DNA from: an uncultured bacterium
Lineage (GTDB): Bacteria; Eisenbacteria; RBG-16-71-46; CAIMUX01
Length of the DNA stretch: 64,000 bases
NCBI GenBank assembly: GCA_964371055.1
Contig: CAYJLF010000016.1
Span: 72,628-136,627, forward strand
Reading direction: 5' to 3'
Shown: in pieces, positions 7,291 to 32,715 of the stretch
Layout: each line of letters begins with the position of its first letter
Position numbering within the stretch: the stretch's first letter is position 1
Notes under the pieces: model-generated
Database searches by the model: none
What the model was told of the DNA's origin: nothing
The model's input: the letters and a program-made list of their open reading frames with translations, nothing else
Made by a program: the position numbers and the translations under genes

Positions 7291-8040
7291 ATGCGACTCT
7301 GCCCCCTGTTCTCGTCTGTTGCGCTCGTCCTGGCCCTCTTCTCCGGCCGTTCGCTTGCCCAGTATGATTCCGGCGCCTGCTGCTTCGAGGAAGGGATCTG
7401 TGAAGTCCGCTCTCTCGAAGAGTGCTACGGCGCCCCAGGGGCCCGCTACTGGACCCAGGGATCAGGCTGCGATCCGAATCCGTGCCAGGTAATCACCCCC
7501 CATCTCGCCTGCTGCCTCCCGGATGGCACCTGTACCATTCTCAACTACCTGGTCTGCGAGGACTCCGGCGGCATGGCGCAGTGGTGGGGAGGCTGCGATC
7601 CCGATCCGTGTGGGGAGCACCTGCAGGCCTGCTGCCTCGCCTCCGGGGTTTGCGACCTGCTCATCCCATCCGTCTGCATATACCTGGGAGGAGAGCCGGC
7701 CGCGCCGACCTCCTGCGACCCGAATCCCTGTGGGTCCGAACCGGGAGCCTGCTGCATCGTTCCCGGGACATGCGTCATCCTGACCTTTGACGCCTGCTAC
7801 CACGCGGAGGACTCCTACGCCTGGCTGGAGGACCAGCCTTGTCTCCCGAACCCCTGTCCCAATACCCCGATGGTCGCCTGCTGCTTCGCCGATGGGCACT
7901 GCGAGCGCATTCCCGACTTCGAGTGTCAGGACCAGGGCGGGAGCAGCGCGGGGTATTGGATCGACTGCAGCCCCAACCCGTGCGCACCGACGCCGCTCGA
8001 GGTCGGATCCTGGGGTCGGATCAAGAGCTTCTATCGCTAG
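7291..8040 (+). CDS. Secreted Cys-rich repeat protein (5 x 6-Cys repeat) with C-terminal SWGRIKSFYR motif
   Basis: ATG 7291 after GGAGG. Signal peptide, five ACC-x5-C-x7-C-x10-14-CxP[ND]PC units, then TPLEVG-SWGRIKSFYR*. Confidence 0.85.
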   Translation: MRLCPLFSSVALVLALFSGRSLAQYDSGACCFEEGICEVRSLEECYGAPGARYWTQGSGCDPNPCQVITPHLACCLPDGTCTILNYLVCEDSGGMAQWWGGCDPDPCGEHLQACCLASGVCDLLIPSVCIYLGGEPAAPTSCDPNPCGSEPGACCIVPGTCVILTFDACYHAEDSYAWLEDQPCLPNPCPNTPMVACCFADGHCERIPDFECQDQGGSSAGYWIDCSPNPCAPTPLEVGSWGRIKSFYR

Positions 8041-8096
8041 CAGGTCCCGCGCCCTGCGGGCGACGCTCGTTGGCCGACGGCAAGATGGAGCAGGTC

Positions 8097-9479
8097 ATGA
8101 TCCGAGATTCGTTCCTCCTGGCCATGGCACTCGCCGCCGGAGTCGCCGGTGCCCAGCCGTCCACGCCGGGCACGTCGCCTCTGCTGCTGACCGGCGTTCG
8201 CATCTTCGACACGGAAGCAGGTGCGATGACCGAGGCGCGCGACATCCTGATCGAGGGCGAGGCGATTCGGACCATCGTCCCGGCGGGCGGCACCATCCCC
8301 GCGGGCGTCGATCCGATTCGTATCGACTGCAGAGGCCGCTACGCGGTGTCGGGGCTCTTCGACTGTCACACCCATGTCGCCCACCTCATGACCGGCGACA
8401 GCCTCGAGATCGTCCTCGACGAGTTCGTCCGGCGCGGGATCTTCTACCTGCGCGACGTGGGAGGACCGATCGACCAGTTGGAGAGCCTCGCGCAGCGGAT
8501 CAAGACGGGGGAGGTCATCGGACCGGAGATCTTCTACACCGGGCCGATGCTGGAAGGGAGCCCGTTGACCTGGGGGGCACAGAATGCCGCGCTGCCCGGC
8601 TTCACGGTGGCGATCGACTCTCCGGCCGCCGTCGACAGCCTCCTGCCGGAGCTGAAGCGGCAAGGCGCCTGCCTCGTGAAGACCTTCAACCGCATCGATC
8701 CCGCGGTCTACCGCGGGCTGGTCGCGACCGCCGGCCGGCTCGGACTCGGCATCGTGCACGATCCGGGCACGCCGCTCTTCCACCGCGTTCCCCTCGACCT
8801 GGCGCTCGAGCTTGGCGTGACGAGCTTCGAACACGCCAAGGCGCCCTGGCCGGTGGTACTGATCCCGGACCTTCAGGAGGAGCATGACCGGCTGATGAAG
8901 AGCTCGCCTGACCCGATGAGCCGGAGCGCCTTCATGGCCCGCGTCGCGGGGATGGGCGTCGAGTCGGTTTCGCCCGAGCGTCTCCGCGACCTCGGCGCGC
9001 GCATGGTGGCGCGAGGCGCCTATCTCTGCCCCACCCTGCACGTGCTCGCCGGCATGGAGGCGATGGCGATCGAGCAGACGAAGCGGCAGCTGGGGCTGCC
9101 GGAGCTCCCGGCGCCGATGCTGGCCATGGTCCACACGAACGTGAGCGGCATGGAGACGGTGAGCCGCATGTTCGTCCGGGAGTTGGCCGGCATGGGAGTG
9201 CCGATGCTGGTGGGCCAGGACAACGCCCGGCCCGCGGGCACGGTCGAGGAGATGCGGCTTCTGATCGGGTGCGGCCTCACTCCGGCCGAGGTGCTCAAGG
9301 GAGCAACGATCTACCCCGCCCGCTGGCTCCGAGTGACCGACCGCCTGGGCTCGATCGCGGCTGGGAAGGCGGCCGATCTACTGGTGGTGACCGGGGATCC
9401 GCTGGACGACATCGGCCACCTTGACGCCCCGATTCTGGTCGTGCGACACGGCGTCGTTCTCCCTGGCGGCGGAGACTGA
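8097..9479 (+). CDS. Exported amidohydrolase family protein (metal-dependent TIM barrel)
   Basis: Signal peptide, 'LLLTGVRIFD', HxH motif 'LFDCHTHV', and C-terminal 'GSIAAGKAADLLVV.GDPL.DI'. Confidence 0.85.
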   Translation: MIRDSFLLAMALAAGVAGAQPSTPGTSPLLLTGVRIFDTEAGAMTEARDILIEGEAIRTIVPAGGTIPAGVDPIRIDCRGRYAVSGLFDCHTHVAHLMTGDSLEIVLDEFVRRGIFYLRDVGGPIDQLESLAQRIKTGEVIGPEIFYTGPMLEGSPLTWGAQNAALPGFTVAIDSPAAVDSLLPELKRQGACLVKTFNRIDPAVYRGLVATAGRLGLGIVHDPGTPLFHRVPLDLALELGVTSFEHAKAPWPVVLIPDLQEEHDRLMKSSPDPMSRSAFMARVAGMGVESVSPERLRDLGARMVARGAYLCPTLHVLAGMEAMAIEQTKRQLGLPELPAPMLAMVHTNVSGMETVSRMFVRELAGMGVPMLVGQDNARPAGTVEEMRLLIGCGLTPAEVLKGATIYPARWLRVTDRLGSIAAGKAADLLVVTGDPLDDIGHLDAPILVVRHGVVLPGGGD

Positions 9480-9505
9480 CGCCGCGGCGGTGGGGGGCCG
9501 GTCGG

Positions 9506-10765
9506 TCAACCGTCTCCCCCACCCGACTCCGCCAATGCCCAACTCGCGATCGACCTGGAGTCGCTCCCCGCCTCGCCGGGTCGCAACACCCTCGAGGAGG
9601 CGCCGATCGGAGCACAGAACCCCGGATCGCTCGCGGCGACGAGAAGCGCCACCGTACGGCGGCCGTAGGCGGCGGCGAGGTGCACGACGCCTGAGTCGTG
9701 ACCGATCACCGCCGTCGCACCGCTGAGGAGACCACAGACCTCACCGAGCAAAGATCCGACCAGGACCGTGGCGCGCCCGTGATCCCCGCTCGTTCCATCC
9801 CTGCCCGGCGGATTGCCCGTGCCTCTGGTCCTCGCCAGCACCCTCGCTCCGCCTGATCGCACGCGCTCGCAGAGCTCCGCCTCGCTCGAGGAACCGACCA
9901 CCACCGTCTGCGCCCCGGCGGAGAGCACGGCTCCCGCGATCTCGACGAAGAGCTCCTCCGGCCATCGTTTCTCCGGCCAGCCGGCTCCGGGGGCCAGAAC
10001 GATGACCGGCTCTTCGGAGTCGAGGCCGCACGCTCTGCAGGCCGCGGGAAAGGAGAGCGACGGATCCGGAGGACGCACGTCCGCCGGCAGGCCGATTCCC
10101 GGAAGGATGCGTTCCAGCACACCGAACGGCTGCTCGCGCAGATGCGTCACGGCAGGGAGAACTCTCCCCCCGGCGGAATAGAGCCAGCCCACCTCATCCC
10201 CCGCGAAGCCGAGCGACCACCGCGGGCGGAGGAGGAAGGTGAAGAGCGCGGAGTAGCGATTCCCGGTCAGGTCGATCACCAGATCGAATCGGCGATCCCG
10301 CAGTGAGGCGGCGCGACGGAAGAGCCCCGTCCAGGTCGCTCTCTCCCGATGCCGGTCGCTGGTAATCTCAGGGGCGGACACCACACATTCCGCGGGGACG
10401 AATCCGCGCCACAGGTCGACGGCGTGCGGCTTGGTGATCACGGTGATCGCGGCGTTCGGCCAGGCCGACCGAAGCGCCGGGATCACCTGGGCGGCCCAGA
10501 GCGTGTCGCCGATCCAGTGACAGGCGATGATGGCGAGAGAACGGGGCGGATCGAACGGCGGCGTCTTCGCGAAGTAGGCGGGCCCCGCCCACAGACGCGC
10601 GAGGGGCCAGGCCAGGCGCGTCACCGGGCCCAGCCAACGTTTGACTGCGGTCCGGACGCCGCGGGGCACCACGGAGCGGGACGGAGCTACGGTCCACGCG
10701 CCCGGACTTCTGCGGCCCGCCTCGCATCGCATCGACGCGGGCCCCACGAGCGGCCGACCCTTCAC
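9506..10765 (-). CDS. Glycosyltransferase family 9 (heptosyltransferase-like)
   Basis: 'HWIGDTLW...ALRSAWPNAAITV', 'LAPGAGWPEKRWP' and 'HDSGVVHLAAA'. ATGA overlap with the upstream GT4. Exact start uncertain. Confidence 0.85.
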   Translation of the reverse strand: MKGRPLVGPASMRCEAGRRSPGAWTVAPSRSVVPRGVRTAVKRWLGPVTRLAWPLARLWAGPAYFAKTPPFDPPRSLAIIACHWIGDTLWAAQVIPALRSAWPNAAITVITKPHAVDLWRGFVPAECVVSAPEITSDRHRERATWTGLFRRAASLRDRRFDLVIDLTGNRYSALFTFLLRPRWSLGFAGDEVGWLYSAGGRVLPAVTHLREQPFGVLERILPGIGLPADVRPPDPSLSFPAACRACGLDSEEPVIVLAPGAGWPEKRWPEELFVEIAGAVLSAGAQTVVVGSSSEAELCERVRSGGARVLARTRGTGNPPGRDGTSGDHGRATVLVGSLLGEVCGLLSGATAVIGHDSGVVHLAAAYGRRTVALLVAASDPGFCAPIGASSRVLRPGEAGSDSRSIASWALAESGGGDG

Positions 10766-12135
10766 CTTCGGCCATCCCTTTCGGCCGGTCGCCCGGATTC
10801 ATCCAGGACCGACGCGAGCAGCCGGTCGAGTTGCCGGGCCTGAAAGGCCCGGGTGTATTCCTCCGGCACGCGCGGCTCGAGGGCATCGAACTCCCCCCTC
10901 TCCCAACGAGAGAAGAGGTCGAGGAGATCATCGGCAATCGCCTCCGGGGCGTCGGCGGGGGGAAAGGCCACGACCGGGGCGTGGCGCAGCACCTTCACCG
11001 CTTCGCTCCCCGGCGGCACCAGGGCCAGGATCGGCCGCCCCGCCGCGACATACTCGAAGCTCTTGCCCGAAGCGACGTGCGTTCCTCCTCCCACGATGCT
11101 CAACAGCACGGCCGCCGAGCGCTGCACGCGGACCACTTCGTCGTGCGGGAGATAGCCCCGCTCCTCCAGCCGATCCGCCAGGCCGGCAGACAACGCCATC
11201 TCGCGGTGGCGACGCGCCAGGAACTCCGTCGTCCCGATCCGCCCCGCCACCACGATCCGCAGACGACGCGCCAGCGCGGAGCAACGCTCCCCCGCCATCC
11301 GCGTCGCCTGGAAGAATGCTTCCGGTGATCGTTCCTCGTTCAGCACGCCGGTATAGACAACCTCGAATCGATCGGCTCGCGGCGGGGTCGGTTCGCGGCG
11401 CCACGGCTCGTCGAGGTCGACGCCGTTCTCGATCACTTCCAGGCGCCCGGCCCGGCCGGGATACGCCTCCGCGTAGAGGTCGCGCATCCCGGAGGTCACG
11501 ACGATCGTTCGGGCCGCTGCCTGCAGCACCGATTCCTCCATGCGCTGATGTCGAAAGAGACGCGCGCCGAGGGCGCGATTCCCCGCGCACCACGGATCGC
11601 GCAGATCGGCCACGAACGGGATCCGCCACCGGAGCGCGAGAGCGCGCGCGGCGAGAAGCGTCGAGTAGGGACTGCCGGTCGCGAGGATGACAGGCCAGCG
11701 TCGGCCGCGGGCGCCGAACTCGCGCCCGACGCGCTCCGCCCATCCCTGGCTTGGATCGGCGGCCTGGCGCGCCCACCACCAGCGCCGCAGAGACCGCGCC
11801 GGCTCGGGCCAACCGCCCGCGATCTCCTCCGGAGCGAGTGAGGCGAGCCAACGTTCGAAGCCGATTCGGCCCGGCGCCAGCGCTCCCCGCGGCGGCTCGG
11901 CCGGTCGCTCCGCGCTCTCGATCCGGCATAGCTCAACGTCGCCGGGGATCTCGTGCAGGAGCGACGCATCGTGGAGCCCGTGCAGCGTGCGATAAAGGGA
12001 GGCCTGGGTGGTCACGACCGTGATCCTCCAGCCCAGGCGACTCAGGTACTTCACGAACTTCACCGACCGCTGGACTCCGCCGCCGCCCGCGGGCGGGAAG
12101 GTGTGCGCCAGGAAGAGGAGCCTCCGTTCAGCCAT
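10762..12135 (-). CDS. Glycosyltransferase family 4
   Basis: 'LLFLAHTFPPAGGGGVQRSVKFVKYL', 'FVADLRDPW', 'VYTG' and 'SGKSFEY.AAGRPILA'. Confidence 0.85.
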   Translation of the reverse strand: MAERRLLFLAHTFPPAGGGGVQRSVKFVKYLSRLGWRITVVTTQASLYRTLHGLHDASLLHEIPGDVELCRIESAERPAEPPRGALAPGRIGFERWLASLAPEEIAGGWPEPARSLRRWWWARQAADPSQGWAERVGREFGARGRRWPVILATGSPYSTLLAARALALRWRIPFVADLRDPWCAGNRALGARLFRHQRMEESVLQAAARTIVVTSGMRDLYAEAYPGRAGRLEVIENGVDLDEPWRREPTPPRADRFEVVYTGVLNEERSPEAFFQATRMAGERCSALARRLRIVVAGRIGTTEFLARRHREMALSAGLADRLEERGYLPHDEVVRVQRSAAVLLSIVGGGTHVASGKSFEYVAAGRPILALVPPGSEAVKVLRHAPVVAFPPADAPEAIADDLLDLFSRWERGEFDALEPRVPEEYTRAFQARQLDRLLASVLDESGRPAERDGRR

Positions 12136-12470
12136 GGCTGCACACCGGCCCGCGATGAGGGCCGCTGAATCGCCGCATCGCCCCGTTGGCCTTGCCGGCA
12201 TTCCGCTCTTCACTCGCCACCCGCGTCATTGGAGGAGAGATTACCACCTGCCTGGCCTGGATGCAGGAGAGGGAGTCATCCAACCACGTCCTCCATCCAC
12301 CGCATCAGACCCGTGCATCGGGCTTAGCCCCGGGAGGATCTTCCTTAGCCGTGCGAGGTCGAAAATCGTTGGAGCGACACAGGATCCCCGCCGATCCCGA
12401 AACCGTGACGAACGAGCGTTCCCGGACGCCCGGGCTCCGGGGGATGAACCGATCGTGGGGGAGGCGGTCC

Positions 12471-15321: not shown

Positions 15322-16866
<1,545 letters not shown>

Positions 16867-16913
16867 GATCTCTCGGCGGAACAGCGACCGACCCGCTGGG
16901 GTATACTTCGCTC

Positions 16914-19900
16914 GTGACCCTGACGACTCCATCGCGATCCCTGCCGGCGACGGTCCATCGGACGGCCTGGACGCTGGCCGTCGTCGTCATCCTCGCGGCA
17001 GGTCCAGCCCAGGCCTGGTCTAAACCCTGGCCGGCCGCGGACCGCAGCGGCTGGATGACCGAGTTCGGCGCTCCTGAACCGGATGGGATGATCTGCGCCC
17101 TCGGCGAATACCAGGGCGCTCTCATCATCGCCGGCGAGTTCACGATCCTGGAAGACACGCCCCTCTGGCACATCGCGCGCTGGGATGGCGAGCGATTCGA
17201 CCCGCTCGAAAGGGGCTTGAACGGGCCTGTTCGCGCGCTGGCCACCTATCGCGGGGACCTCATCGCTGCCGGCGACTTCACCGCGGCGGGCGAGGTAGCC
17301 GTCTCCTGCATCGCCCGGTGGGATGGAACCGAGTGGCATCCACTGGGCCGGGGATCCGACATCCCGATCCTGACGGTCGCAGTCGTGGGAGACACCCTCT
17401 TCGCCGGCGGGCCCTTCGGCGCGGAGTTCGGCACGCCGGCCCGCGCCGTGCGTGCCTGGGACGGCGTCCAATGGAGGGACGCGGGCTTCGATGAGTCGGT
17501 TCCCGTCAGCGAGGGATACGTCCACCAGCTCCTCGCGTTCGACGGCCGCCTGGTCGCCTGGTGGGACAATGACCGGCTCCACCCCGACTACGATGACGTG
17601 CCGAGCGGCGTCTTCCACCTGGCAGGCGAGCGGATCGCCGGTCGATGGCGGCAGATGCCGGAGGAGTATCCCGGCGAGTGGTTTCTCGATCACTTCCAGC
17701 CCGACGCGCTCCTGGTTCAGGATGGCCGACTCTATGCCGTCGGCGAACTCGGCTACGGACACCTCCTCGTCGAGTGGGACGGCCGCTCGTGGCGCCAGCT
17801 CGCCTCTCCCGGGCCCTACACTACGGCGAGCCTGGGCTTCTGGCGTGGTCAGCTTCTCGTCAGCACGGACGATCGACTCCACCGATGGACTGGATCCAAC
17901 CTCGAGCTCATGACCCCGCTCGATCTCTACCCGTCCACGCTCCACGCCTGGCGTGAGGATCTGTGGACGGCGGGGCGATACGCTCTCGCGCCCGGCTCTC
18001 CGCAGCCAGCGCTCTTTCGCTGGGACGGGACGATCTGGACGCACTACGGAAGACGCGAGGGGCTGGGGCTGTGCGGGGAAAACGAACCCTTCGTCGCCTC
18101 CCTCGCGATCTCGGGTCGTGCTCCGGCCGTCTACGGCCGCTTCGATCGCGCCGGAGGGGTCGCCTGCACCGATCTGATCGTGCGCGATGGCCACGGGTGG
18201 CAGCGCCGTCACACAGAGCGGCGGCAGCGGGCCGCGCCTGGATCGGCCCACTCCCTCTGGAGCCATGGGCCATGGCTCTACTTCGGCATCTACAGCAGCT
18301 TCGACGGTCCGTTCCTGATGCGCAGCTCTTCCGAGCAGGCCGAGGGGGTGTCAGGACTGGGCGCTACGCCGGTCGTGATCCATAACTGGGACGGCCGGCT
18401 CTTCATCGGCGGCCCGTTCACCCGACCGGCCCCCAGCTACATCGTCGAACGTGTCCCGGGAGACTGGCACTCGCCCCGGGGCGGACTGAATGGACCGGTC
18501 GAGGCCCTCTGTACCTATCGAGGAGTGCTCGTGGCAGGCGGATCGTTCACCGCGAGCATTCGGGAGACCGCTCCGTTGCGCTCGATCGCGTGCTGGGACG
18601 GGTGGAGGTGGTTCGACCTCGGCGGCGGCCTGCCGGATCCGGTCACGGCGCTCGCGCCCTTCCGCGGCGGGCTGGCGGCGGCCTGCACTCTGCCGGGAGA
18701 CTCCCTCGATCCCGGCTTCGATTCCGCCCGCCCGGCGCGCGGAGCGGTCTTCTGGTTCGACGGATCGGCGTGGCAGCCGCTCGGCGCAGCGTTCAACGGA
18801 CGCGTGCGCGATCTCGAGGTCTTCCACGGGCGGCTGATCGCCGCGGGGGACTTCACCCTCGCGCCCGGCCGGGGTGCCGTCGCCGCCCTCGAAGAGGGAG
18901 ATTGGGTCGCGATCGGAGAGGGGATGAACGGACCGGCGAACGCCCTCCTGGCGCATGACGACACGCTCTGGGTCGGCGGCCGGTTCACCGCCGCCGGATC
19001 GACCATCTCGGCACGGCTCGCCGGGTGGATCGAACCAACCGTTCCGCTCGAGGACTTCCTCGTCGAGCTGGCCGGCACACCCCGCTCCGGATCAGAAGCC
19101 ACCGCTGCGGACTCGGCCGGTCCGGTGCTTCCCCCAGACTCTCCCCGCGCGCGTGTGTCGTTCCGCCTGCCCGATGACCCGCGCTTCGATCGCGCCTTCC
19201 TGCGCACATCTTCGACCGGCTTTCCGGCCGACCCGGAGGAGGGAGATCCCCTTCGCCCCGGCACCGACGGTTCCTTCGACGGTGGGCCGGGAGATCGGGT
19301 GAGTCATGAGTTTCAGGTCGCCGAGGGGACCACGCTCTACATCGCAGGATTCGCGGCCGATCTCGATGGACAGGTCTCCCGGCCAAGCCGGTCGATCCTC
19401 CACGTCCCCGATCAGACCCCTCCCTGGTTCTCGGCTAACATCCGGCGCCTGCCGTCTCTCGGATCGGGCGCGATCAGGTTCCAGATCGACGCGCTTTGCC
19501 CCGAACCACCGCCGCCGCCGGGGCCGAGCGCCCGGTTCGGGGACGAGGTGACCCTGCTGGAGCGGCCGACCGGCGATCCGTTCGCCTGGTTCGGCGTCGT
19601 CGCCCGTCCGCCTTCGGCTCAGGGCGAGGCGGTCCTGATCTCGGTCGCGGACAGCGTGGGTAATGTCACCACCGCGATCTCCCGATGGGCGGCGGCGCCG
19701 GTCTTCGCCCAGGCGGGCGGGCGATGCACCTTCGATGACGCCACCTGGGTGGAGTATCGCGAGGATGTCGTCCATGACCCCGCCTGGCTGACCATCGTCG
19801 GCCAACCGGAATCTGCCGGGTTCGATCTCGACAGACTCGGAGCTTGGCACATCGCCCTCAATGAAGAGCCACGGCACCCGCTCCTCCTCTTCCACCGACC

Positions 19901-20345
19901 GTCATCACGTTCGACCCGCTCGATCGACCTCAGCCGCCTGGCCCTGGCAGCGCCTCACGGCGAGCGTCTGGCGGGCACGTTCGACTCCGACATCGGTGTC
20001 ATCTGGTTCTGGATCGATCGTAATGGCGACTATCGACTGGTCCGGAACGACACCCCGACCAGTTCACCCGCTGATCCCCATCTTCTCCGGCTCGAGGGTC
20101 CGTTTCCCAATCCGTCCTATCGCACGATCACCGTCCGCTGGGAGGTGGCAGCTCGACAACCGGTGCACTTCGAGCTCTTCGATGTCGCGGGGCGTCGCGT
20201 GGCACGGCTCTTCGACGGGCTCTCGGGGCCGGGACCCCAGACGTTCACCTGGTCCCCGTCCGTCGACCTGCCGGCCGGCATCTACTTCGGCCGGGTCCGG
20301 ACCGAGAACTCCGAGCGCAGCGTGCGGCTGGTCTGGAGGCCGTGA
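16914..20345 (+). CDS. Large secreted beta-propeller-repeat protein with C-terminal FlgD-Ig/T9SS-like domain
   Basis: GTG 16914 and signal peptide. Repeated 'G[LM]NGPV.AL......L..[AG]G.FT.......IA.WDG..W..LG.G' blades. CTD 'GPFPNPS...FDVAGRRVARL...PAGIYFGR'. Confidence 0.8.
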   Translation: MTLTTPSRSLPATVHRTAWTLAVVVILAAGPAQAWSKPWPAADRSGWMTEFGAPEPDGMICALGEYQGALIIAGEFTILEDTPLWHIARWDGERFDPLERGLNGPVRALATYRGDLIAAGDFTAAGEVAVSCIARWDGTEWHPLGRGSDIPILTVAVVGDTLFAGGPFGAEFGTPARAVRAWDGVQWRDAGFDESVPVSEGYVHQLLAFDGRLVAWWDNDRLHPDYDDVPSGVFHLAGERIAGRWRQMPEEYPGEWFLDHFQPDALLVQDGRLYAVGELGYGHLLVEWDGRSWRQLASPGPYTTASLGFWRGQLLVSTDDRLHRWTGSNLELMTPLDLYPSTLHAWREDLWTAGRYALAPGSPQPALFRWDGTIWTHYGRREGLGLCGENEPFVASLAISGRAPAVYGRFDRAGGVACTDLIVRDGHGWQRRHTERRQRAAPGSAHSLWSHGPWLYFGIYSSFDGPFLMRSSSEQAEGVSGLGATPVVIHNWDGRLFIGGPFTRPAPSYIVERVPGDWHSPRGGLNGPVEALCTYRGVLVAGGSFTASIRETAPLRSIACWDGWRWFDLGGGLPDPVTALAPFRGGLAAACTLPGDSLDPGFDSARPARGAVFWFDGSAWQPLGAAFNGRVRDLEVFHGRLIAAGDFTLAPGRGAVAALEEGDWVAIGEGMNGPANALLAHDDTLWVGGRFTAAGSTISARLAGWIEPTVPLEDFLVELAGTPRSGSEATAADSAGPVLPPDSPRARVSFRLPDDPRFDRAFLRTSSTGFPADPEEGDPLRPGTDGSFDGGPGDRVSHEFQVAEGTTLYIAGFAADLDGQVSRPSRSILHVPDQTPPWFSANIRRLPSLGSGAIRFQIDALCPEPPPPPGPSARFGDEVTLLERPTGDPFAWFGVVARPPSAQGEAVLISVADSVGNVTTAISRWAAAPVFAQAGGRCTFDDATWVEYREDVVHDPAWLTIVGQPESAGFDLDRLGAWHIALNEEPRHPLLLFHRPSSRSTRSIDLSRLALAAPHGERLAGTFDSDIGVIWFWIDRNGDYRLVRNDTPTSSPADPHLLRLEGPFPNPSYRTITVRWEVAARQPVHFELFDVAGRRVARLFDGLSGPGPQTFTWSPSVDLPAGIYFGRVRTENSERSVRLVWRP

Positions 20346-20413: not shown

Positions 20414-21943
20414 CTAGCGAACGGGTAGCCTAACGATCCTCCCCGCGGCCATCGGCGCACCCGCCGCTGACCCGCGATAGAGATAGACCCCGCCGGGCAT
20501 CACGACTCCACGCTCGTCCCGACCGTCCCAGAGCAACGCCGCCGCGCCGGAATCGGTCTCCGCACCCAGACGCCGCACCCGTCGCCCGTTGACATCGAAG
20601 ATCGTGAGAGAGACCGCGCTCGCGCCGATTCCACTCCACTCCAGTCGCACGGCATCGCGAAACGGATTCGGCCAGGCTCGCATCGTCCGGCCGACCAGGC
20701 TCGGAACCATCTCGCTCCCCGGCTCCTCCGGCGCCGCATCCGCCGTCAGCCACGACGCGTAATCGACCAGACCGAGCGATGGATTGTCCGGCTGATGGAA
20801 GATCGCGTCCTCGACCTCCTGCTGCGAGGCCCCGCCCCACCAGTTTCCCTGCGCCATCTGTGCGAGCGGGGTGTTGTTGTAGAGGCCGTAGGTCCGGCTG
20901 AGTCCGTTCTCGGCGATGCAGTTGCCGCCGTCGTCGTCGGTCGAGCCGTTCCCGAGGTTGCCGAGGTTTGGATGTCCCCCGTTGATGATCGCCACGCCAT
21001 ACCAGTGCCCGCGGATCATGTTCTGCGCCACGATCGGGGCGTTGTTGCCGTTGCAGGCGATCCCGAACCCCCAGTTCAGCGTGTCGGGATGGATCGTGTT
21101 CGCCAGAAGGACGTTTCCGCGGATCATCGGGTTCGCCCCGGTCTGGTAGCAGAGGATTCCGTAGCCGCATCCCTCGATGTGATTCCGCTCGATCAGGCCG
21201 TTGCTGGCGGCCCAGAGGGAGATCCCGCCGCTCATGTGGTGCCCGCTGCCGAGGATGGTGCAGCCGCGGATGGTCGGCGAGTTCGTCCCCTGCAGTCCGA
21301 TGTTGATGTAAGGATAGGGTGAGGTGTTCTCGATGTTGTTGTTTTCCATCCGACAGGACTCGATCAGGGGCGAGGAAGAGAGCGTCATGGTGATCGTCCG
21401 GCGGCGGTTATCGTGCAGATGGCAGCCCCGGACCACCCCGCCCGCGGCCGAGAAGTCGAGCACCTTGTCCAGGTTGTCGTGGAGGTCGCACGACTCGAGA
21501 AGGACCGCCCCACCCACCACATCGACGGCGGTGTGGGCATGGGCGATCTCGCACCAGGCCAGACGGAACTCCGATCCCGCCTGCGTGTCGCTGAAGCCGA
21601 GGCCGCGCCAGGCGCCGGGGGTCGGCGTCGCGGAGTCGAAGACGATCTTCGCCTCGCTCGTGCCGATCGCCTCCAGCGCGCCGCGGATCTCCAGCCCGAT
21701 CGTGCCGCCGGTGTCGAGGAACTCGAGGCGCGCGCCAGGCGCAACGACGAGGCGATCCGTCACCGAAACCACGACCGACTGGTGGACCTGATAGTCGCCC
21801 GACCCTCCGGTCACGGCGCCGCCGGACTGGGCCACCAGATCATCCATCGACCAGACGACACCGGTTCCCGGAGTGACGTAGTCGGCCACAGCCGGGCCGG
21901 CGAGCAGGATCAGCAACAGGGAGAGAAGAAGGATCGGCTTCAT
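20414..21943 (-). CDS. Secreted right-handed parallel beta-helix protein with FlgD-Ig CTD
   Basis: Signal peptide MKPILLLSLLLILLAGPAVA. Beta-helix repeats (SSPLIESC, NSPTIRGC, ANPMIRGN, NAPIVAQN). CTD 'AWPNPF...FDVNGRRVRRL...WDGRDERG...GVYLYR'. Confidence 0.8.
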   Translation of the reverse strand: MKPILLLSLLLILLAGPAVADYVTPGTGVVWSMDDLVAQSGGAVTGGSGDYQVHQSVVVSVTDRLVVAPGARLEFLDTGGTIGLEIRGALEAIGTSEAKIVFDSATPTPGAWRGLGFSDTQAGSEFRLAWCEIAHAHTAVDVVGGAVLLESCDLHDNLDKVLDFSAAGGVVRGCHLHDNRRRTITMTLSSSPLIESCRMENNNIENTSPYPYINIGLQGTNSPTIRGCTILGSGHHMSGGISLWAASNGLIERNHIEGCGYGILCYQTGANPMIRGNVLLANTIHPDTLNWGFGIACNGNNAPIVAQNMIRGHWYGVAIINGGHPNLGNLGNGSTDDDGGNCIAENGLSRTYGLYNNTPLAQMAQGNWWGGASQQEVEDAIFHQPDNPSLGLVDYASWLTADAAPEEPGSEMVPSLVGRTMRAWPNPFRDAVRLEWSGIGASAVSLTIFDVNGRRVRRLGAETDSGAAALLWDGRDERGVVMPGGVYLYRGSAAGAPMAAGRIVRLPVR

Positions 21944-22249
21944 GAGGGACCTCCGCGGTGATACCCGGCGGCTTGGATAGCAGAACGCCCCGCTATTGTA
22001 CCAAGAGCCGCCTGAGGGGAGCGAGGGGAAGGCCACGGGCGCCATAACAGCTCCGCATCGGCCCGGCCTGCTTCACCTCGAGTCGATCCTCTTGTGGTCC
22101 CGGGCGTCCGCGCGGTATGCTCGAATGCGGTCGTTCGAGCCCGGCCTCCGGGCATCCGATCACGAAGGAGTCGCTTGTCGCCGTCATCTCCCGGCCGCAT
22201 CGCCACCCATCTGGTCGCGCCGCGGTCGCCGGATCAGGAGTCGCCCACC

Positions 22250-23755
22250 ATGTCGCTTCGCATCCTCTGCGGTCTCGTGCTCATGATCTGCCTCGGCCTC
22301 GTGCCCGCCGCCGACACCGTCCTCGCCGCTCGGGTCGATGTCGGATCAGCGGGTTCGGTCGCGACGACCTTCGTCGCAAAGACAGCGGGGCACTCTGACC
22401 CATCCGCGATCGTGGTCGAGGTGACGGACAGTCCGTCGATCATCTCCCGCGACGGTCGGGACCTCGCCTACCTCTTCCGGCTGGCGCCTCGCGGCTACGT
22501 CGTGGTGGCGGCGGACGACGCGCTCCCCGCCGTTGTCGCCTACTCCCTGGAGGCCGATCCGCTCGAGGATGTGCAGAGCGACCACCCCCTCCTCCGCCTC
22601 GTCGCGGCCGACCTCGAGTCCCGCCTGCGGTCGCTCTCTTCCGTCGATCCGGACATCACGCGCGAGCGGGCGCGGCAGTGGACCGCACTGCGGCTCGGTT
22701 CCTGGGAACGCGCGCCGGGCGAGCGATTCCAGCAGTGGCCTCCCTCGGGATCGACCCCGACCGGCGGGTGGCTTCTCTCCAACTGGACCCAGAGCGCCCC
22801 CTACAACGCGCTCTGCCCCCTGGACCTGGCGCACGGAGGCGCGCGGAGCGTGGCCGGATGTCCCGCAGTCGCGATGGCGATGATCCTCAACTACCACGAA
22901 ACGATTCAGGCCACCGCCTTCGGTGCCGGCGACCGCTACTGGCACGCCTACGCCGGCAACAACTACTGGATCCCCGATGCCGCGGCCACCTATGGCTTCC
23001 CCGACTTTCCGACCCTGAACGGCCATCTCGCCACGCTGACCGCCCACTGGGGCTCGGGGACTCCGCTCACCAACACCGACAAGGCGGCTTTGACCTTCGC
23101 CTGTGGAGTCGCCGCAACCCAGGTCTACAGCGCGTCGGGATCCGGCACCTTCGGCGTCGACCAGGCCTACGACGCCTATCAGCGCTTCGCCTTCACCGGC
23201 TGCCGCCTCGCCTTCGACACCGATCCCGAGCTCTACTCCGATCTCGCCCTCAGCATGCAGAGCGCCCTTCCGGCCCACCTCGCCGTGGTGGACGAGGGAT
23301 GGACGATGGGGCACAACGTGGTGGTGGACGGCTACAACACCGACAACTACTTCCACCTGAACTTCGGATGGGGCGGAGCGTACAACGGATGGTACCTGCT
23401 CCCCTCGGAGATTCCCTACGGTCTCACCGTGATCGAGGGCGTGGTCCTCGACATCGTTCCGGAAACGACGGCGGCTCCCGAGTTCACCTCCATGGTCAAC
23501 GCTCGATCCCTCATCTGCGTCCCGAATCCCGGAACCGATCGGATCTCGCTCGACCTCGGAGGGCCGTTCGCCCCGGACCTGGAGCTCGAGATCTTCGACG
23601 CCGCGGGACGTCTGATCCGAACGCTGGGCGGCTCGTCGGGCGGCCCGATCGTCTGGATGACCGACGATGCCGGGGGACGCCCCGTCGCGCCCGGCGTCTA
23701 CTTCGCCCGGACTCAGGACGGATCGGCGGCCGCGCGCATCGTCGTCTGTCGCTGA
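22250..23755 (+). CDS. C10 (streptopain/SpeB-like) cysteine peptidase with FlgD-Ig CTD
   Basis: Propeptide 'GYVVVAADD.LP.VVAYS', 'W.Q..PYN..CP', catalytic 'AGCPAVAMA', His motif 'GHNVVVDGY' and 'FHLNFGWGG..NGWY'. CTD 'PNP...FDAAGRLIRTL...PGVYF'. Confidence 0.88.
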   Translation: MSLRILCGLVLMICLGLVPAADTVLAARVDVGSAGSVATTFVAKTAGHSDPSAIVVEVTDSPSIISRDGRDLAYLFRLAPRGYVVVAADDALPAVVAYSLEADPLEDVQSDHPLLRLVAADLESRLRSLSSVDPDITRERARQWTALRLGSWERAPGERFQQWPPSGSTPTGGWLLSNWTQSAPYNALCPLDLAHGGARSVAGCPAVAMAMILNYHETIQATAFGAGDRYWHAYAGNNYWIPDAAATYGFPDFPTLNGHLATLTAHWGSGTPLTNTDKAALTFACGVAATQVYSASGSGTFGVDQAYDAYQRFAFTGCRLAFDTDPELYSDLALSMQSALPAHLAVVDEGWTMGHNVVVDGYNTDNYFHLNFGWGGAYNGWYLLPSEIPYGLTVIEGVVLDIVPETTAAPEFTSMVNARSLICVPNPGTDRISLDLGGPFAPDLELEIFDAAGRLIRTLGGSSGGPIVWMTDDAGGRPVAPGVYFARTQDGSAAARIVVCR

Positions 23756-28112: not shown

Positions 28113-28537
28113 CACCCGATCGTTCGCCCCCCCCCCGCAAAACAGCGCCTTCTGGACCGTCGAGAGTCCGCGACGCACCCCACCTGGTGAGTCGAGCGCC
28201 GAGTCGGAGACCCGCTCTCACCAATCGGCCAAATGCCATCCACATGGCGTTCCTGGCGAAGATCAGTTAAGATTTCCTGTCTCGCTGCCGATCTAATTCT
28301 AGTCGGCTGACAGCGACGTCAGCCCGGTGTCCCGACCCGCCTCGGGGGTAGCCTTCGAGGACGGAGAGCGGCACTCAGGGACGGATACACACGATCCGAT
28401 CGCTCGCAGACGGATCGGCGCGCTCGCCGGGGGACTCAATTCTGGTGTCACGCCCACCGATCGATGCACAGGACGCTCCTCTCGGGCGGACTGCCGGGGC
28501 GCCCGCAGTCTCGGCCCGGGTGGCGCGCTCCCCCGCG

Positions 28538-29242
28538 ATGCGTCCTGTCGCCTGGGTCGCGTCGTGCGCCTTGCTCCTCCTCGCTCCGGCCTGCGCCCTG
28601 CTGCCTCGTCCCTACCCGGCCGGACCACCCCCCTCCGGCCTGGAGTCGTTGGAGAGTGGAATCTGGCGCGAGGTCAACCTGGCGCGCTCCCATCCGGCTG
28701 CGATGGCCGACTATCTCGCAAGCTGGCTCCCCGCCTTCGAAGGGACGCGCCTCACCCGTCCCGGACACCGTCGTTTCAAGATGAAGGAAGGGCGCATCGC
28801 GGTGGAGGAGGCGATCCGCTATCTCCGCCAGGTGGAGCCCGTACCTCCGCTCGCCTTCTCCACCGGTTTGTCGTGCGGGGCGCGCGATCTCGTCCAGGAC
28901 CTCGGCCCGCGGGCTGTGGTGAGCCACGTCGGATCCGACGGGAGCCTCGTCAAGGACCGCGTCGCGCGCTACGGGACGATCCGCCGCAAGGCGGCCGAGC
29001 TGATCCAGTTCGGCACGACCGACGCGAGGGAGATCGTCGCGCTCCTCATCGTGGACGACGGCGTTCAAGACCGCGGGCACCGCCGGGTTCTCTTCGACGA
29101 CGACTACCACCTCATGGGTGTCGCCCTGGGGCCGCACGCCGGCTATCGGTCGATGTGCGTGATCACTCTCGCCGCGGGCTATCACGAGAATCTCGCCGGC
29201 CTGGCACCGGCGGCGGGGGCGGACGACAACCTGACCTGGTGA
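28538..29242 (+). CDS. CAP (SCP-like) domain protein, probable lipoprotein
   Basis: 'LLLLAPAC' lipobox-like segment, 'EVNLARSHP', and 'LIVDDGVQDRGHRRVLF...MGVA.GPH..Y..MCVI'. Start uncertain (28445 or 28538). Confidence 0.8.
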   Translation: MRPVAWVASCALLLLAPACALLPRPYPAGPPPSGLESLESGIWREVNLARSHPAAMADYLASWLPAFEGTRLTRPGHRRFKMKEGRIAVEEAIRYLRQVEPVPPLAFSTGLSCGARDLVQDLGPRAVVSHVGSDGSLVKDRVARYGTIRRKAAELIQFGTTDAREIVALLIVDDGVQDRGHRRVLFDDDYHLMGVALGPHAGYRSMCVITLAAGYHENLAGLAPAAGADDNLTW

Positions 29243-29345
29243 TCGACCCCTTGGGCAGCGAGGGGGTAGGTGGCGCGTTTCACTTTGGGGTCCGGCCGCG
29301 GAATCTGGTGGGCTTCCGCGGCCGCCGTGACCCCTCCGTACTCGT

Positions 29346-30260
29346 CTAGAAGTAGCTCTGCTTCACCCGGCCCCAGGTCACGATATGGGTCGGCGTCGGG
29401 CACGGGTTCGGATCGCATGGCACGCCCGCGCCGAAGAACTCTCCTCCGCCCGCCGTGCACTGCTCCGGCGTGTACCAGCGGCACTCGATTCCGATGCAGC
29501 AGGCCCCCTCGGCCGGCGGCTGCAGACACGGATTCGGCTCACAGCTCAACCCGAGGAACGTCCCTCCCGCCGCCGCGCAGGCGCTCGGGGGAAGGATCTG
29601 GCAGGAGCCGTCCGCGAAGCAGCAGGCGCCCGGATCATCATTGCCCGGGGGGCAGGTCACAACGCCCGCCTGTCCGAAGCCGAGGCTGCCAAGAGCGACG
29701 ATCGTATCCTCGACCGGGGGAACGCTGTCGTCCACGAAGACCATGCCCTGCGAAGGGTGGGCCGTGATCGCCCATGAGCCCGGCGGGCCGTAGCCATAGC
29801 CGGCCAGCCAGTAGCACTCGACCATCGTCGTCGTCTTGACCAGGCCAAAGCTGAGGCCCACGCCGCCGCCGCTCGTCAAGGGCCAGCCGGCTTGCGCGAT
29901 CTCGAAGTCGGCGACCGGATCGGGAAGACCGCCGGCGACGACGGCAACCTCCGATGGGAACTGCGCGCCAAAGACCAGCGCCTTCAGGCGCGGCGCCGCG
30001 TCGGGTGGGAAGGCGGCGTAGACCTTCCAGACCCATCCAGCTCCGCTCTCCGGCACCCCGAGCGGCAACTCGGCGTCGACCCCCACACACGCGGGCGCCT
30101 GGCTGGGATAGGCCGACGCGTCCGAGGTGTAGACGAGGCCGGTGTCATGCACGACCAGGGTGCCACCGAAGTTCGGCCCCGCCAGCGCCTGGCCCGAGAC
30201 CAGCCCCCAGGAAGCCCCGAACAGGATCGCCAAGGTCAGGATCGTAAGCCGCCGGATCAT
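29346..30260 (-). CDS. Secreted protein: unknown N-terminal domain, 2 Cys-rich repeats, C-terminal TWGRVKQSYF
   Basis: MIRRLTILTLAILFG... signal peptide after GGAGGG. Paralog of 30592-31482. Confidence 0.85.
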   Translation of the reverse strand: MIRRLTILTLAILFGASWGLVSGQALAGPNFGGTLVVHDTGLVYTSDASAYPSQAPACVGVDAELPLGVPESGAGWVWKVYAAFPPDAAPRLKALVFGAQFPSEVAVVAGGLPDPVADFEIAQAGWPLTSGGGVGLSFGLVKTTTMVECYWLAGYGYGPPGSWAITAHPSQGMVFVDDSVPPVEDTIVALGSLGFGQAGVVTCPPGNDDPGACCFADGSCQILPPSACAAAGGTFLGLSCEPNPCLQPPAEGACCIGIECRWYTPEQCTAGGGEFFGAGVPCDPNPCPTPTHIVTWGRVKQSYF

Positions 30261-30591
30261 CTCTTCGCCCTCCCTGATGCCACCGAACCGGCACCCGTGC
30301 GGATGCCCCGCCATCGCCCCACGCCCGGACTCGAGCGTGGAGCGGGACGAGCCCCGGATCGCCGCGTATTGGATCGCTGGGTTGGTTATCGGCTGCAATC
30401 GAGCGGATGTGCAGGGAGAAGCTGGGGAGCGCAACCTGCCTCCCGCGCCCGGTCCCGGGGTTGGGCACCGGGCGGCGGGGGCACCCCCGCCCCCACCCGG
30501 TCGGCCCGCCCGGGGTATCAACCCCCCCGGCGGGCCCGGCACATCGCTCCGGCTGGCAGGCAGCCGTCTGTTCGCGCGACCTTCCAGCCGT

Positions 30592-31482
30592 CTATGGGCG
30601 GTGGATCGCCTTGATCCGTCCCCAGGAGGTCTCCTCGATCGGCGTTCCGTCGCACGGATTGGGGTCGCAGGTGAAGATCTCCAGGAGAGTGACCCCGCCC
30701 AGGCACTCGCAAACGTTGGGCCAGTGGAGCTCGCAGGTGCCGTCGGGGAGACAGCAGGCGCTGCCGGCGAGCGGCGGGCACGGGTTCGGGTCGCAGGAGA
30801 CGTCCTCTCCGAACCACAGGCCGCAGAGCTCGACACACTCCGCCTCCAGGACGATCAGGCAGTTACCCGGCTCCAGGCAGCAGGCCCCAACCTGCGGGAT
30901 TGGGGCCGGACAAGGCAGGCTCCCGGGGACTCCGAAGCCAAGCGAGCCGAACGCCGCCACCGGGTCCTCCACCGGCGGAACCGAGTCATCCACGAAGAGC
31001 GTCGGCCCCTGGGGATGCGGCGTCAGGGACCAGACGCCCTGGTTGTAGGCGTACCCGGCCAGCCAGTAGCAGTCGTTCACGGTGGCGGTCTTGACCTCGC
31101 CAAAGACCACTCCGACCCCACCGCCGCTGACGGACGGCCAACCATCCTGCCCGATTTCGAAGTCGTGCAACGGGTCGATCAGGCCGGCCGCCTCGACGAT
31201 CACCTCGGGCGGGAACTGCGATCCCATGACGAAGGCCTTCAGGCGCGGCGACGAGCCTGGCGGAAAGGCCGCCCAGACATGCCACAGGATCGGGATGCCG
31301 AGGTCCGCCTGCACGTCGGCGTTTACGCAGGCGTCCAGGGCGCAGTCGTACTCGTAGGTCCGGAGGATCTGGCACTCGTGAACGATCAGCACGCCGCCGG
31401 CGTTGGGCCCGGCGAAAGCGGGCACGAACGAGACGCCGAGGAGAAGAGTCAAGGCCGTAGTCAGACGAACGAAGAATCGCAT
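30592..31482 (-). CDS. Secreted protein: unknown N-terminal domain, 2 Cys-rich repeats, C-terminal SWGRIKAIHRP
   Basis: MRFFVRLTTALTLLLGVSFVPAFA signal peptide after GGAGG. Shares AAFPP..PRLKA, DFEI.Q.GWP..SGGGVG, CYWLAGY and FVDDSVPPVED with 29346-30260. Confidence 0.85.
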   Translation of the reverse strand: MRFFVRLTTALTLLLGVSFVPAFAGPNAGGVLIVHECQILRTYEYDCALDACVNADVQADLGIPILWHVWAAFPPGSSPRLKAFVMGSQFPPEVIVEAAGLIDPLHDFEIGQDGWPSVSGGGVGVVFGEVKTATVNDCYWLAGYAYNQGVWSLTPHPQGPTLFVDDSVPPVEDPVAAFGSLGFGVPGSLPCPAPIPQVGACCLEPGNCLIVLEAECVELCGLWFGEDVSCDPNPCPPLAGSACCLPDGTCELHWPNVCECLGGVTLLEIFTCDPNPCDGTPIEETSWGRIKAIHRP

Positions 31483-31746
31483 CGGGGCCTCCTTTTCCGC
31501 AGGTTCACATCGCGGGATCGCGTCTGCGCAGCGGCGGAAACCTGGCCGTCGGAGCCGGCGCGGCACAAGTATAGCGCAACTCCACGACAAGTGCTACCTG
31601 ACGAACTTGGTCTTCTCTTTGCCCATGCCTCGGATAGCCCGGACGGAGGGCGGGGCCGGTGGCCGGTCCCCGGATGGCCGGATCTCCAAAGTCCGAGCCT
31701 GCCGAAGTGCGCGCTCGCCGGGTGCCTGGCCCGCAGGCCCGCCGAG

Positions 31747-32715
31747 CTACTCGCGGTATCCTTCCTTGACCGCCCCCCAGCTCAGCCGGCGGGTCTCCGG
31801 TTCCGGATCGTCCCCCGGGGCGGACTCAGAACCGGTCACATAGATCGTGGCGGGAAGGCAGGCCTGGCAGACCGAGTCGGCGAAGATCTGGGCCTCGTAC
31901 GTGCCGGGGCCGATCACGCCGGCATCGACGGTCACGGTGATCGATCTCTGGTAGTCGTCGATCCAATCGGCCTGGACGTGAATCCACGGGTAGCTGGCCC
32001 CCCAGGCCACATTGCAGGGAGATCCGTCGGGCCGGGAGCGGACCCACGCATCGAGATGCCCTTGTCCCTCCTCGCCCACCGGTACCGTGATGACGAGGCC
32101 CGACTGCAGGAAGGTCGCCCCGCAGGCCAGCCCGTAGGTCGAGCAGTCATGCCAGCACCAGCAATCGACGGGACCGGCGTGGGCGGGCCAGGTCTCCATT
32201 TCCCAGTCGAATCCGTCCTCGCGCCAGCTCGCTTGCGCGATCTCCACCTGTCCGCGTGCGGTGACGTCCAGGACGACACGCCCGACCAGGAAGAACGAAC
32301 CCGACATCGGAGTCGGACCTCCGAAGGAGATCTGCGCGGCGAGGGAGCCGGGACCGTCCGAACGCACGAGGGCTCCGCCGACGCAGTTCTCGAACTCCAC
32401 GAGTTGCCAGTCGGCGGGCCAGGCCAGTTCGAAGGTGAGTCGGTCAGGCATCGGTGGGTAGGTGATCAGGCACTCGAAGAAGAGATCGAACTCCAGAGGT
32501 CCGGCCTGATCGAGGTGCTGCACCACCTCCTCGCAGGTGGTGATCGGGTTGGTGGTACAGAATCCGTCGTTCACCGGCTGCACGTGCAGCCTGGCGGTTC
32601 CCGCCGGCAGCGGGTTGGCGACCGTGATCGCCGGGGTGAGCACGGCGACCAGGCACACGACCACGAAGACGGCCAGAACCGGCCCGGGGCCTTGGAAACG
32701 GTTCAGCGCTCTCAT
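31747..32715 (-). CDS. Secreted Cys-containing protein with BACON/Ig-like C-terminal region and SWGAVKEGYRE terminus
   Basis: Signal peptide after GGAGG. About 11 Cys in the mature part. 'W.ASYPWI.V...ITVTVDA..IGPGTYEAQI' resembles BACON-type Ig domains. Confidence 0.75.
   Translation of the reverse strand: MRALNRFQGPGPVLAVFVVVCLVAVLTPAITVANPLPAGTARLHVQPVNDGFCTTNPITTCEEVVQHLDQAGPLEFDLFFECLITYPPMPDRLTFELAWPADWQLVEFENCVGGALVRSDGPGSLAAQISFGGPTPMSGSFFLVGRVVLDVTARGQVEIAQASWREDGFDWEMETWPAHAGPVDCWCWHDCSTYGLACGATFLQSGLVITVPVGEEGQGHLDAWVRSRPDGSPCNVAWGASYPWIHVQADWIDDYQRSITVTVDAGVIGPGTYEAQIFADSVCQACLPATIYVTGSESAPGDDPEPETRRLSWGAVKEGYRE

Follow-up and report, generated by a model that had tools for sequence, protein, structure and literature searches.

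A short conserved C-terminal peptide as a candidate sorting tag on secreted proteins of Eisenbacteria and related uncultured phyla

Results

The 64-kb stretch of DNA analysed here (contig CAYJLF010000016.1, positions 72,628 to 136,627; hereafter the window) comes from an uncultured bacterium of the Eisenbacteria and encodes four exported proteins, P1 to P4 (Table 1), whose C-termini are variants of the peptide [ST]WGxIKxxYR, which we call the tail. The tail is strictly terminal, is carried by unrelated exported proteins, excludes the C-terminal domain (CTD) typical of type IX secretion systems (T9SS) and recurs in several phyla. Judged from these sequence data, it is probably a portable tag, read by a receptor, that brings its cargo to the surface or the outside of the cell or keeps it in place there. 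The original prediction had proposed a sorting or anchoring signal on the four proteins, and this proposal is supported: the peptide is terminal, sits on exported proteins, is portable and can be swapped with the CTD, properties from which we infer its function.

A six-frame scan of the window (68.6% GC) located WG.[IVLM]K at exactly four sites, each 9-10 residues upstream of a stop codon, and at no internal site. The DNA pattern TGGGGNNNNRTNAAR has four matches, against 0.17 +/- 0.38 expected from 100 dinucleotide shuffles, none of which reached four. The peptides sit where the original prediction had placed them, one of them on the + strand; the strand had been left unstated, and the segments 29346-29378, 30592-30627 and 31747-31782 all lie on the - strand. 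The four proteins had also been described as bearing signal peptides and as differing in their bodies, and both descriptions hold. At every N-terminus lie an n-region, a hydrophobic core and a Sec signal of the AxA type. P1 consists of repeats only, namely five Cys-rich units of ~38 aa (ACC..G.C...C...C.PNPC); P2 and P3 have an N-domain followed by two repeats, and P4 is unrelated to the others and free of repeats. Genes called independently in further assemblies of this organism give P2, P3 and P4 identical lengths (304, 296 and 322 aa). P2 belongs to the same family as P3, being hit P0029 of the P3 homologue search. P4 is nearly an orphan; its two homologues both end in [ST]WGxVKxxYR plus one residue, and its AlphaFold2 (AF2) model is unusable (predicted local distance difference test, pLDDT, 44). 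None of the four proteins has a Pfam or NCBIfam match, even at E<=1, and P1 has no sequence match in the PDB.

The tail extends well beyond the window. A search with P3 gave 207 homologues, and all those with a named source are Candidatus Eisenbacteria. As these proteins were retrieved through the body, they provide an unbiased sample of the tail: among the best 120 of the 207, WG lies 8-14 residues from the end in 118, the distance between W and the C-terminus is exactly nine residues in 102, and R is the last residue in 101. A degenerate DNA pattern for [ST]WGxIKxxY[RS]-stop was then used to scan a species-representative genome collection, in which at least 119 loci were found, with ~50 chance matches expected in the whole collection (hand calculation). 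Among the matches listed, at least 38 loci belong to Eisenbacteria/Eiseniibacteriota, at least 6 to Latescibacterota, at least 5 to Krumholzibacteriota, at least 4 to metagenome-assembled genomes (MAGs) labelled Gemmatimonadota, at least 3 to Cloacimonadota and at least 1 each to Zixibacteria and Effluviviacota; at least 56 come from MAGs without a label and five carry other labels. Three of these five (Sulfurimonas, Herpetosiphon, Methylococcales) were rejected as chance matches with no plausible gene. No Bacteroidota locus is present among the matches listed (at least 119 loci), though the phylum is large in the collection; this is weak evidence. We note that contigs from an Acidobacteriota-labelled MAG (L062) and a Udaeobacter-labelled MAG (L100) bear typical tail genes. 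The L062 protein is close to one from an Eisenbacteria MAG (L057), which suggests mis-binned contigs and not true occurrence in those phyla.

A relaxed protein pattern applied to the loci listed (801 kb) yielded 151 tail open reading frames (ORFs), many of them outside the DNA match. In these ORFs, all from other genomes, W stands at position 9 from the C-terminus in 145 of 151. Whether the motif also occurs internally bears directly on the proposal; besides its absence from the interior of proteins in the window, only two ORFs in the 801 kb carry the full motif with a longer C-terminal extension. One, on the + strand of L001, has the motif 89 residues from the stop (extension ...SWGQIKALFPLADER...), and the other, in L073, 22 residues from the stop (extension ...TWGAMKARYRGERVAAQPAPQAR); these may be decayed tags or genes that lost their stop codons. 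Multiple copies are common: 34 of 112 loci listed contain at least two tail genes, 31 pairs are same-strand neighbours, and several MAGs contribute 3-4 separate loci each among the matches listed. Searching a 5.8-billion-protein collection with the tail profile gave 20 candidates and 3 weak matches, the word index of that collection being unable to retrieve a motif of 10-17 residues.

The tail logo reads W-G-x-I-K-[A/S/N]-x-Y-R-COOH. It is preceded by a stalk of P (-8), [TVS] (-7), P (-6), [VT] (-5), E (-4), x, [ST], [ST], and a structural Cys is frequent 9-12 residues upstream of W. Because the search pattern did not include the stalk, the conservation seen there counts as independent evidence. 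W, G and K are the sole invariant residues in the alignment of 129 proteins, and R is the terminal residue in 84-96% of cases. For G (four codons), I, K, Y and R (six codons) every synonymous codon occurs, in loci of 33-73% GC; such free variation across so wide a range of composition indicates selection on the peptide and not on the DNA. No transmembrane segment is present in the last 30 residues of any of the 151 tail proteins, where a run of AVLIFMW never exceeds five. In the AF2 model of P3 (83 sequences, mean pLDDT 90.7) a beta-sandwich and two small Cys-knot repeats are followed by the tail region, in which a coil (residues 264-286) leads into a short helix (287-293, pLDDT ~65) that covers the tail and is not docked on the body. 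Along the tail, conservation in the P3 family has the periodicity of an alpha helix, with a moment of 0.38 at 100 degrees compared with 0.02-0.09 at the strand angles of 160-180 degrees (permutation p = 0.007). W1, I4, K5, Y8 and R9 are thus predicted to share one face of a short helix, with the variable positions opposite.

The stop codon of all four tail genes in the window is TAG (8038-8040, 29346-29348, 30592-30594 and 31747-31749). The same codon ends 88 of 143 tail genes (62%), well above the 33% of long control ORFs (72 of 215) and the 16 of 35 for CTD genes from those loci. The idea that TAG is read through, adding a concealed C-terminal stretch such as a transmembrane segment, was considered and rejected: the in-frame downstream sequence is unconserved and no longer than in controls.

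The cargo is exported and diverse. A Sec-type signal was identified in 96% of 129 full-length tail ORFs, which places the tag on exported and not on cytoplasmic proteins; the signal peptides listed, judged by eye, are mostly AxA-type without a lipobox Cys. With the tail removed, the 151 proteins fall into 74 BLAST body clusters. The suggestion of a conserved tag on otherwise different cargo is thereby borne out, and the converse possibility, that the tail is the terminal element of one shared domain, is contradicted both by these clusters and by the free short helix that follows a coil linker in the AF2 model. Tail proteins are small (median 236 aa, compared with 713 aa for CTD-bearing ORFs of the same loci) and most have no Pfam domain. 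Where domains were recognised by Pfam, they include right-handed beta-helix/NosD, lamin-tail domain (LTD), Chlamydia PMP repeats, InhA-like MAM and pectate lyase, as well as DUF11, FG-GAP, NHL, CBM20, thioester domain, cleaved-adhesin, Big_1 and plastocyanin. NCBIfam adds choice-of-anchor J, V and W, rhombosortase- and myxosortase-dependent M36 peptidases, ExeM/NucH extracellular nucleases, a PEP-CTERM ScyF-like protein and a MYXO-CTERM family. The choice-of-anchor families are surface-protein domains with alternative C-terminal anchors (bioRxiv 10.1101/2023.03.06.531300). In other lineages several of these cargo domains, namely choice-of-anchor J/V/W, beta-helix, ExeM/NucH nuclease and M36 peptidase, bear PEP-CTERM, GlyGly-CTERM, MYXO-CTERM or T9SS anchors.

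The family of P2 and P3 has some features of its own. Its N-domain (207 homologues) gives target-normalised template modelling scores in Foldseek of up to 0.73 against the cohesin modules 2vo8 and 2jh2, so the model resembles a cohesin-like beta-sandwich. The domain is followed by an undescribed Cys-rich repeat of ~38 residues, ACC..G.C......C.......C[DE]PNPC, for which no Pfam, NCBIfam or PDB sequence match was found; the five units of P1 are repeats of this kind. In one assembly of the same population (L121:11234-13370) the P3/P2 pair is called as genes of 445 and 268 aa in place of 296 and 304 aa, which suggests strain-level rearrangement or recombination between these paralogues.

The relationship between the tail and the T9SS-type CTD is one of exclusion. 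In the window, a FlgD_ig/T9SS-type CTD closes six genes (ends at 20345, 20414, 23755, 41148, 44440 and 47493) with the type-A motifs PNPF ... GVYFY ... RK-LLL-R, and none has the tail. The mutual exclusivity noticed originally therefore stands, with four plus six proteins and no overlap. It also extends outside the window, since a hidden Markov model built from the window CTDs identified 36 CTD ORFs in the loci listed, again none with the tail. The bodies, in turn, can be homologous. P0024, a homologue with the body of P3, has a T9SS-type CTD directly after the last Cys repeat, in the place of the tail, and six tail proteins have CTD-bearing body homologues (E<=1e-10). Exclusivity together with homologous bodies that bear either module indicates that the tail acts as a further 'choice of anchor', interchangeable with the CTD. 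The modules have more in common: in bacteria of the Fibrobacterota-Chlorobiota-Bacteroidota (FCB) group both form the very C-terminal end of surface or extracellular cargo exported by Sec, both are portable among unrelated bodies and both are found in the same genomes. One supposed likeness did not survive, that of the tail linkers to the linkers before the CTDs; the tail linker has its own P-x-P-[VT]-E signature, which was not seen before the T9SS-type CTDs of related loci.

Discussion

A fixed register, invariance over phyla and 74 cargo families, exported cargo and exclusivity with the CTD are features of a sorting or anchoring signal. In operational terms the tail behaves as a portable C-terminal sorting tag, combining terminal position, unrelated exported cargo, exclusivity and multiple copies. 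Since it lacks a transmembrane helix as well as a fold, it cannot act in the manner of sortase-type signals or the T9SS CTD, and the conservation of one face, the short predicted helix and the proline-rich stalk point to docking on a conserved protein. We infer a tag of ~17 residues, the stalk P-x-P-[VT]-E-x-x followed by [ST]-W-G-x-I-K-[small]-x-Y-R-COOH, that would operate as follows. The cargo would be exported by Sec through its N-terminal signal peptide and would fold in the periplasm, with disulfides where cysteines are present. The tail, perhaps two helix turns, would then be exposed on its stalk, and a conserved envelope protein, the putative receptor, would read the face made up of W1, I4, K5, Y8 and R9 together with the nearby free carboxylate. 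This receptor would finally hand the cargo to the surface or exterior, or keep it there. The tail would in that case be a compact alternative to the ~80-residue T9SS-type CTD borne by other, mostly larger, proteins. We suggest more tentatively, and with somewhat less than even confidence, that the tail labels a new sorting pathway of the envelope, which would have a receptor to itself and perhaps also a separate outer-membrane route or attachment enzyme. This pathway may, just as tentatively, be limited to the Eisenbacteria, Krumholzibacteriota, Latescibacterota, Cloacimonadota and Zixibacteria within the FCB group. In a sub-variant, the abundant cohesin-like P2/P3 family would itself be a surface scaffold that binds the tails of other proteins.

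The tail can be set against other C-terminal signals. It shares with the tripartite sortase-type signals (LPXTG/sortase, PEP-CTERM/exosortase, GlyGly-CTERM/rhombosortase, MYXO-CTERM) a short C-terminal signature on many unrelated secreted proteins, common cargo families (choice-of-anchor domains, M36 peptidase, ExeM/NucH, ScyF) and a small conserved motif, here P-x-P-[VT]-E, which precedes a terminal basic residue by a few positions. In those signals, however, a transmembrane helix has to separate motif and basic cluster, and the tail, with nine residues from W to the end, has none. The 129 tail proteins matched 47 NCBIfam families, none of which was matched by more than nine of them, and no sorting-signal model is among the top 25 listed. 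The nearest mechanistic analogue is the S-domain of secretins (PulD-PulS, MxiD-MxiM), in which a disordered C-terminal peptide folds as an amphipathic helix on a pilotin carrier, which afterwards conveys the cargo to the outer membrane. The parallel is an analogy only, with no sequence similarity to the tail, and to our knowledge docking of the pilotin type is known for secretins alone and not as a portable tag on many cargo families. Signals read at a free C-terminus, such as peroxisomal targeting signal 1 (PTS1) by the TPR domain of Pex5, the YxF end of outer-membrane proteins (OMPs) by the PDZ domain of DegS and the OMP beta-signal by BAM, likewise combine a fixed carboxylate register with few invariant side chains. 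PTS1 is eukaryotic and three residues long. The OMP beta-signal has an aromatic last residue and occurs on beta-barrels; by contrast the tail ends in R, its conservation is helical and not alternating, and the cargo domains identified are of soluble types. Type I secretion signals differ as well, being uncleaved and ~50 residues long, often on RTX proteins and without an N-terminal signal peptide, whereas the tail ORFs are overwhelmingly Sec-type; RTX families are absent from the top 25 listed Pfam families of the cargo.

It had been stated at the outset that no characterised system was known for the motif, and as far as this is testable we agree. No model in Pfam-A (2025) or NCBIfam (June 2026) covers the tail, no PDB chain matches its profile, and in the searchable literature we found neither a paper containing the motif strings nor anything relevant on secretion or sorting in Eisenbacteria or related phyla.

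Several observations weigh against a receptor-read tag. No receptor, peptidase or translocon was found beside the tail genes and no neighbour family recurs there; in a Pfam scan of 132 flanking ORFs, at most three shared any one family, and tail genes lie dispersed among genes unrelated to one another. All four of the window's own tails stray from the consensus, with V for I, F or H within Y-R, and added residues. In ~14% of the P3 family there are 1-5 added residues or the final one is missing, which argues against an absolute need for a carboxylate at fixed distance. Confidence in the AF2 tail is modest, and its helicity derives from one model and the conservation periodicity only. All carriers, lastly, are uncultured, which is probably also the reason the tag has so far been overlooked.

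Most deserving of consideration among the alternatives, and in our view still unlikely, is a minimal or piggy-back T9SS signal, by which the tail would bind a PorV-like shuttle or the translocon, or dock on a CTD-bearing carrier. Genes for the tail and for type-A-like CTDs (PNPF...GVYFYRL...RKMVLLK/R) do lie in the same loci, the window included, homologous bodies bear either module, and both modules typically finish with hydrophobic residues and a final R or K. In P. gingivalis the very C-terminal end of the CTD matters for function, and further FCB phyla, Cloacimonadota among them, are suspected of having a T9SS (PMC11285876). The known signal is nevertheless described as a folded beta-sandwich domain (PMC4804311, PMC11285876). 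The CTD is Ig-like, ~80 residues long in a class that spans ~70-100, and marked by PNPF, GxY and K-hhh-K, while the tail has 10-17 residues and is predicted to be helical. CTD models (TIGR04183, PF18962 and PF13860-like) gave no Pfam or NCBIfam match to the four window proteins at E<=1, and CTD families are absent from the top 25 listed families matched by the 129 tail proteins. The lack of Bacteroidota among the matches listed also speaks, weakly, against this explanation.

Somewhat less likely again is that no receptor is involved and that the tail is an anchor in its own right, an in-plane amphipathic helix whose W/Y and K/R would keep the protein on a leaflet of the membrane, on lipopolysaccharide or on some other anionic polymer. 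In its favour, W, Y, K and R are residues typical of membrane interfaces, most families have hydrophobic side chains at +4 and +7 (I, L/M), and the helical hydrophobic moment of TWGAIKALYR is 0.52. Yet the invariance of W, G and K and the fixed register across phyla and 74 cargo families far exceed what generic amphipathic anchors display. Members of the P3 family usually have a polar residue at +7 (N, R, T), leaving only three hydrophobic side chains, and nine residues are very short for stable lipid binding.

The strict C-terminal placement would also suit a PDZ-type reader, and the tail could in principle be a proteolysis or quality-control tag recognised by a PDZ- or TPR-containing envelope protease of the S41/Ctp or DegS/DegP type. 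S41 enzymes read C-termini, and one gene of the window (Table 1) codes for a peptidase of the S41 family (tail-specific/tricorn-type) that has TPR repeats fused to its C-terminal side, which makes this enzyme a candidate tail reader; nothing links this gene to the tail, however. S41 or PDZ genes are not enriched among the 132 ORFs flanking tail genes, and a degron on 74 surface-type families that bear anchors elsewhere, interchangeable with a secretion CTD, would be hard to explain. We regard this role as improbable. Even less probable is a covalent tether in which the invariant Lys is cross-linked to peptidoglycan or another polymer. In Braun's lipoprotein (Lpp) the C-terminal ...YRK is linked by L,D-transpeptidases, and the invariant K and terminal Y-R of the tail bear a resemblance to that ending. 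Lpp is a lipoprotein with a terminal Lys; the tail differs in ending in R with its Lys at -5, five residues from the end, and its cargo is of extracellular or surface type and not made up of periplasmic structural proteins. The small number of sites in the window, four, could by itself have hinted that there is no tag at all and that the peptide reflects chance, a nucleotide-level element or the last secondary-structure element of a shared domain, but these readings are refuted by the excess over shuffled DNA, the synonymous variation, the 74 body clusters and the undocked tail of the AF2 model.

Neighbouring genes

All-against-all BLAST of 2770 ORFs from the 119 loci listed gave a sole recurrent cluster, that of Ser/Thr-kinase/TPR-type regulators. 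These occur in 12 of the 119 loci, in ~10 of them directly beside a tail gene, and are either Ser/Thr kinase + STAND NTPase + TPR proteins or TPR + sigma-54 activator + Fis helix-turn-helix proteins. They may reflect dedicated control of tail proteins or mere abundance in these genomes. No sortase, exosortase or rhombosortase was seen in the ORFs flanking tail genes.

The remaining genes of interest in the window are given in Table 1. The DsbA-family oxidoreductase beside P2-P4 is plausibly relevant to Cys-rich cargo. Three tandem paralogous S8 subtilases, each with CarboxypepD_reg and a FlgD_ig/T9SS-type CTD, lie downstream of a sensor kinase and a response regulator. The S41-TPR peptidase is contained in a 1312-aa ORF that overlaps a probable ABC-F ATPase gene on the opposite strand, and only the part of that ORF from ~49600 looks genuine.

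Table 1 Coordinates of the tail genes, of other genes in the window and of regulator ORFs in tail loci of other genomes
Feature	Position	Strand	Remarks
P1	7291-8040	+	249-aa secreted protein; linker, tail, TAG stop
P1 signal peptide	7291-7362	+	
P1 linker APTPLEVG	7984-8007	+	local form of the stalk consensus P-x-P-[VT]-E (-8 to -4 in the logo)
P1 tail SWGRIKSFYR-COOH	8008-8037	+	with stop to 8040
Large protein	16902-20345	+	T9SS-type CTD at end; 16902 is an in-frame position only, not a called start
Beta-helix protein	20414-22045	-	FlgD_ig/T9SS type-A-like CTD at end
C10 peptidase	22094-23755	+	I69 inhibitor domain and T9SS-type CTD
P2	29346-30260	-	304-aa secreted protein; signal peptide, cohesin-like beta-sandwich (predicted), two Cys repeats, linker PTPTHIV, tail
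P2 tail TWGRVKQSYF-COOH	29349-29378	-	variant: V for I, terminal R absent
P3	30592-31482	-	296-aa secreted protein, P2-like architecture
P3 tail SWGRIKAIHRP-COOH	30595-30627	-	variant: H for Y, one residue more
P4	31747-32715	-	322-aa secreted beta-rich protein; body unrelated to others, no repeats
P4 tail SWGAVKEGYRE-COOH	31750-31782	-	variant: V for I, one residue more
DsbA-family oxidoreductase	33197-33760	+	adjoins the P2-P4 cluster
Sensor kinase	34604-36616		GAF/HATPase_c domains; upstream of the S8 subtilases
Response regulator/SpoIIE phosphatase	36606-37934		upstream of the S8 subtilases
S8 subtilase, first	38035-41148	+	CarboxypepD_reg and FlgD_ig/T9SS-type CTD
S8 subtilase, second	41291-44440	+	CarboxypepD_reg and FlgD_ig/T9SS-type CTD
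S8 subtilase, third	44500-47493	+	CarboxypepD_reg and FlgD_ig/T9SS-type CTD
Probable ABC-F ATPase	47580-49577	-	identity from translation alone
1312-aa ORF	47613-51551	+	overlaps the probable ABC-F gene
S41-TPR peptidase	49599-51548		part of the 1312-aa ORF
Regulator ORF	L032:2059-5478		
Regulator ORF	L027:2622-5621		
Regulator ORF	L111:4101-7298		
Regulator ORF	L080:4479-7517		
Regulator ORF	L077:4087-6429		
Regulator ORF	L073:2334-4925		
Regulator ORF	L023:1857-5777		
Regulator ORF	L106:17-3799		

Conclusions

The tail is probably a C-terminal sorting tag, with an architecture that has not been described for bacteria. If the more tentative reading, that of a new pathway, is correct as well, the tail would be the first C-terminal sorting signal in bacteria to consist of a nine-residue helix read at the free C-terminus, in place of a transmembrane tripartite signal or a folded domain. 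LPXTG, PEP-CTERM, GlyGly-CTERM and the T9SS CTD each led to dedicated envelope machinery, and C-terminal tags are routinely used for predicting displayed or secreted proteins. In several phyla without any cultured member, which are common in soils, sediments, groundwater and digesters, the tag marks a large part of the secretome that at present lacks annotation; nearly all carriers seen are annotated as 'hypothetical proteins', and a model of the tag would improve the annotation of carrier proteomes at once. The same model would serve as a profile for phylogenetic profiling toward the partner machinery, and the peptide itself could be used as bait. Should the partner prove to be new, it would define a new sorting route in diderm bacteria; should it prove to be T9SS, the folded CTD would not be the sole entry to that system.

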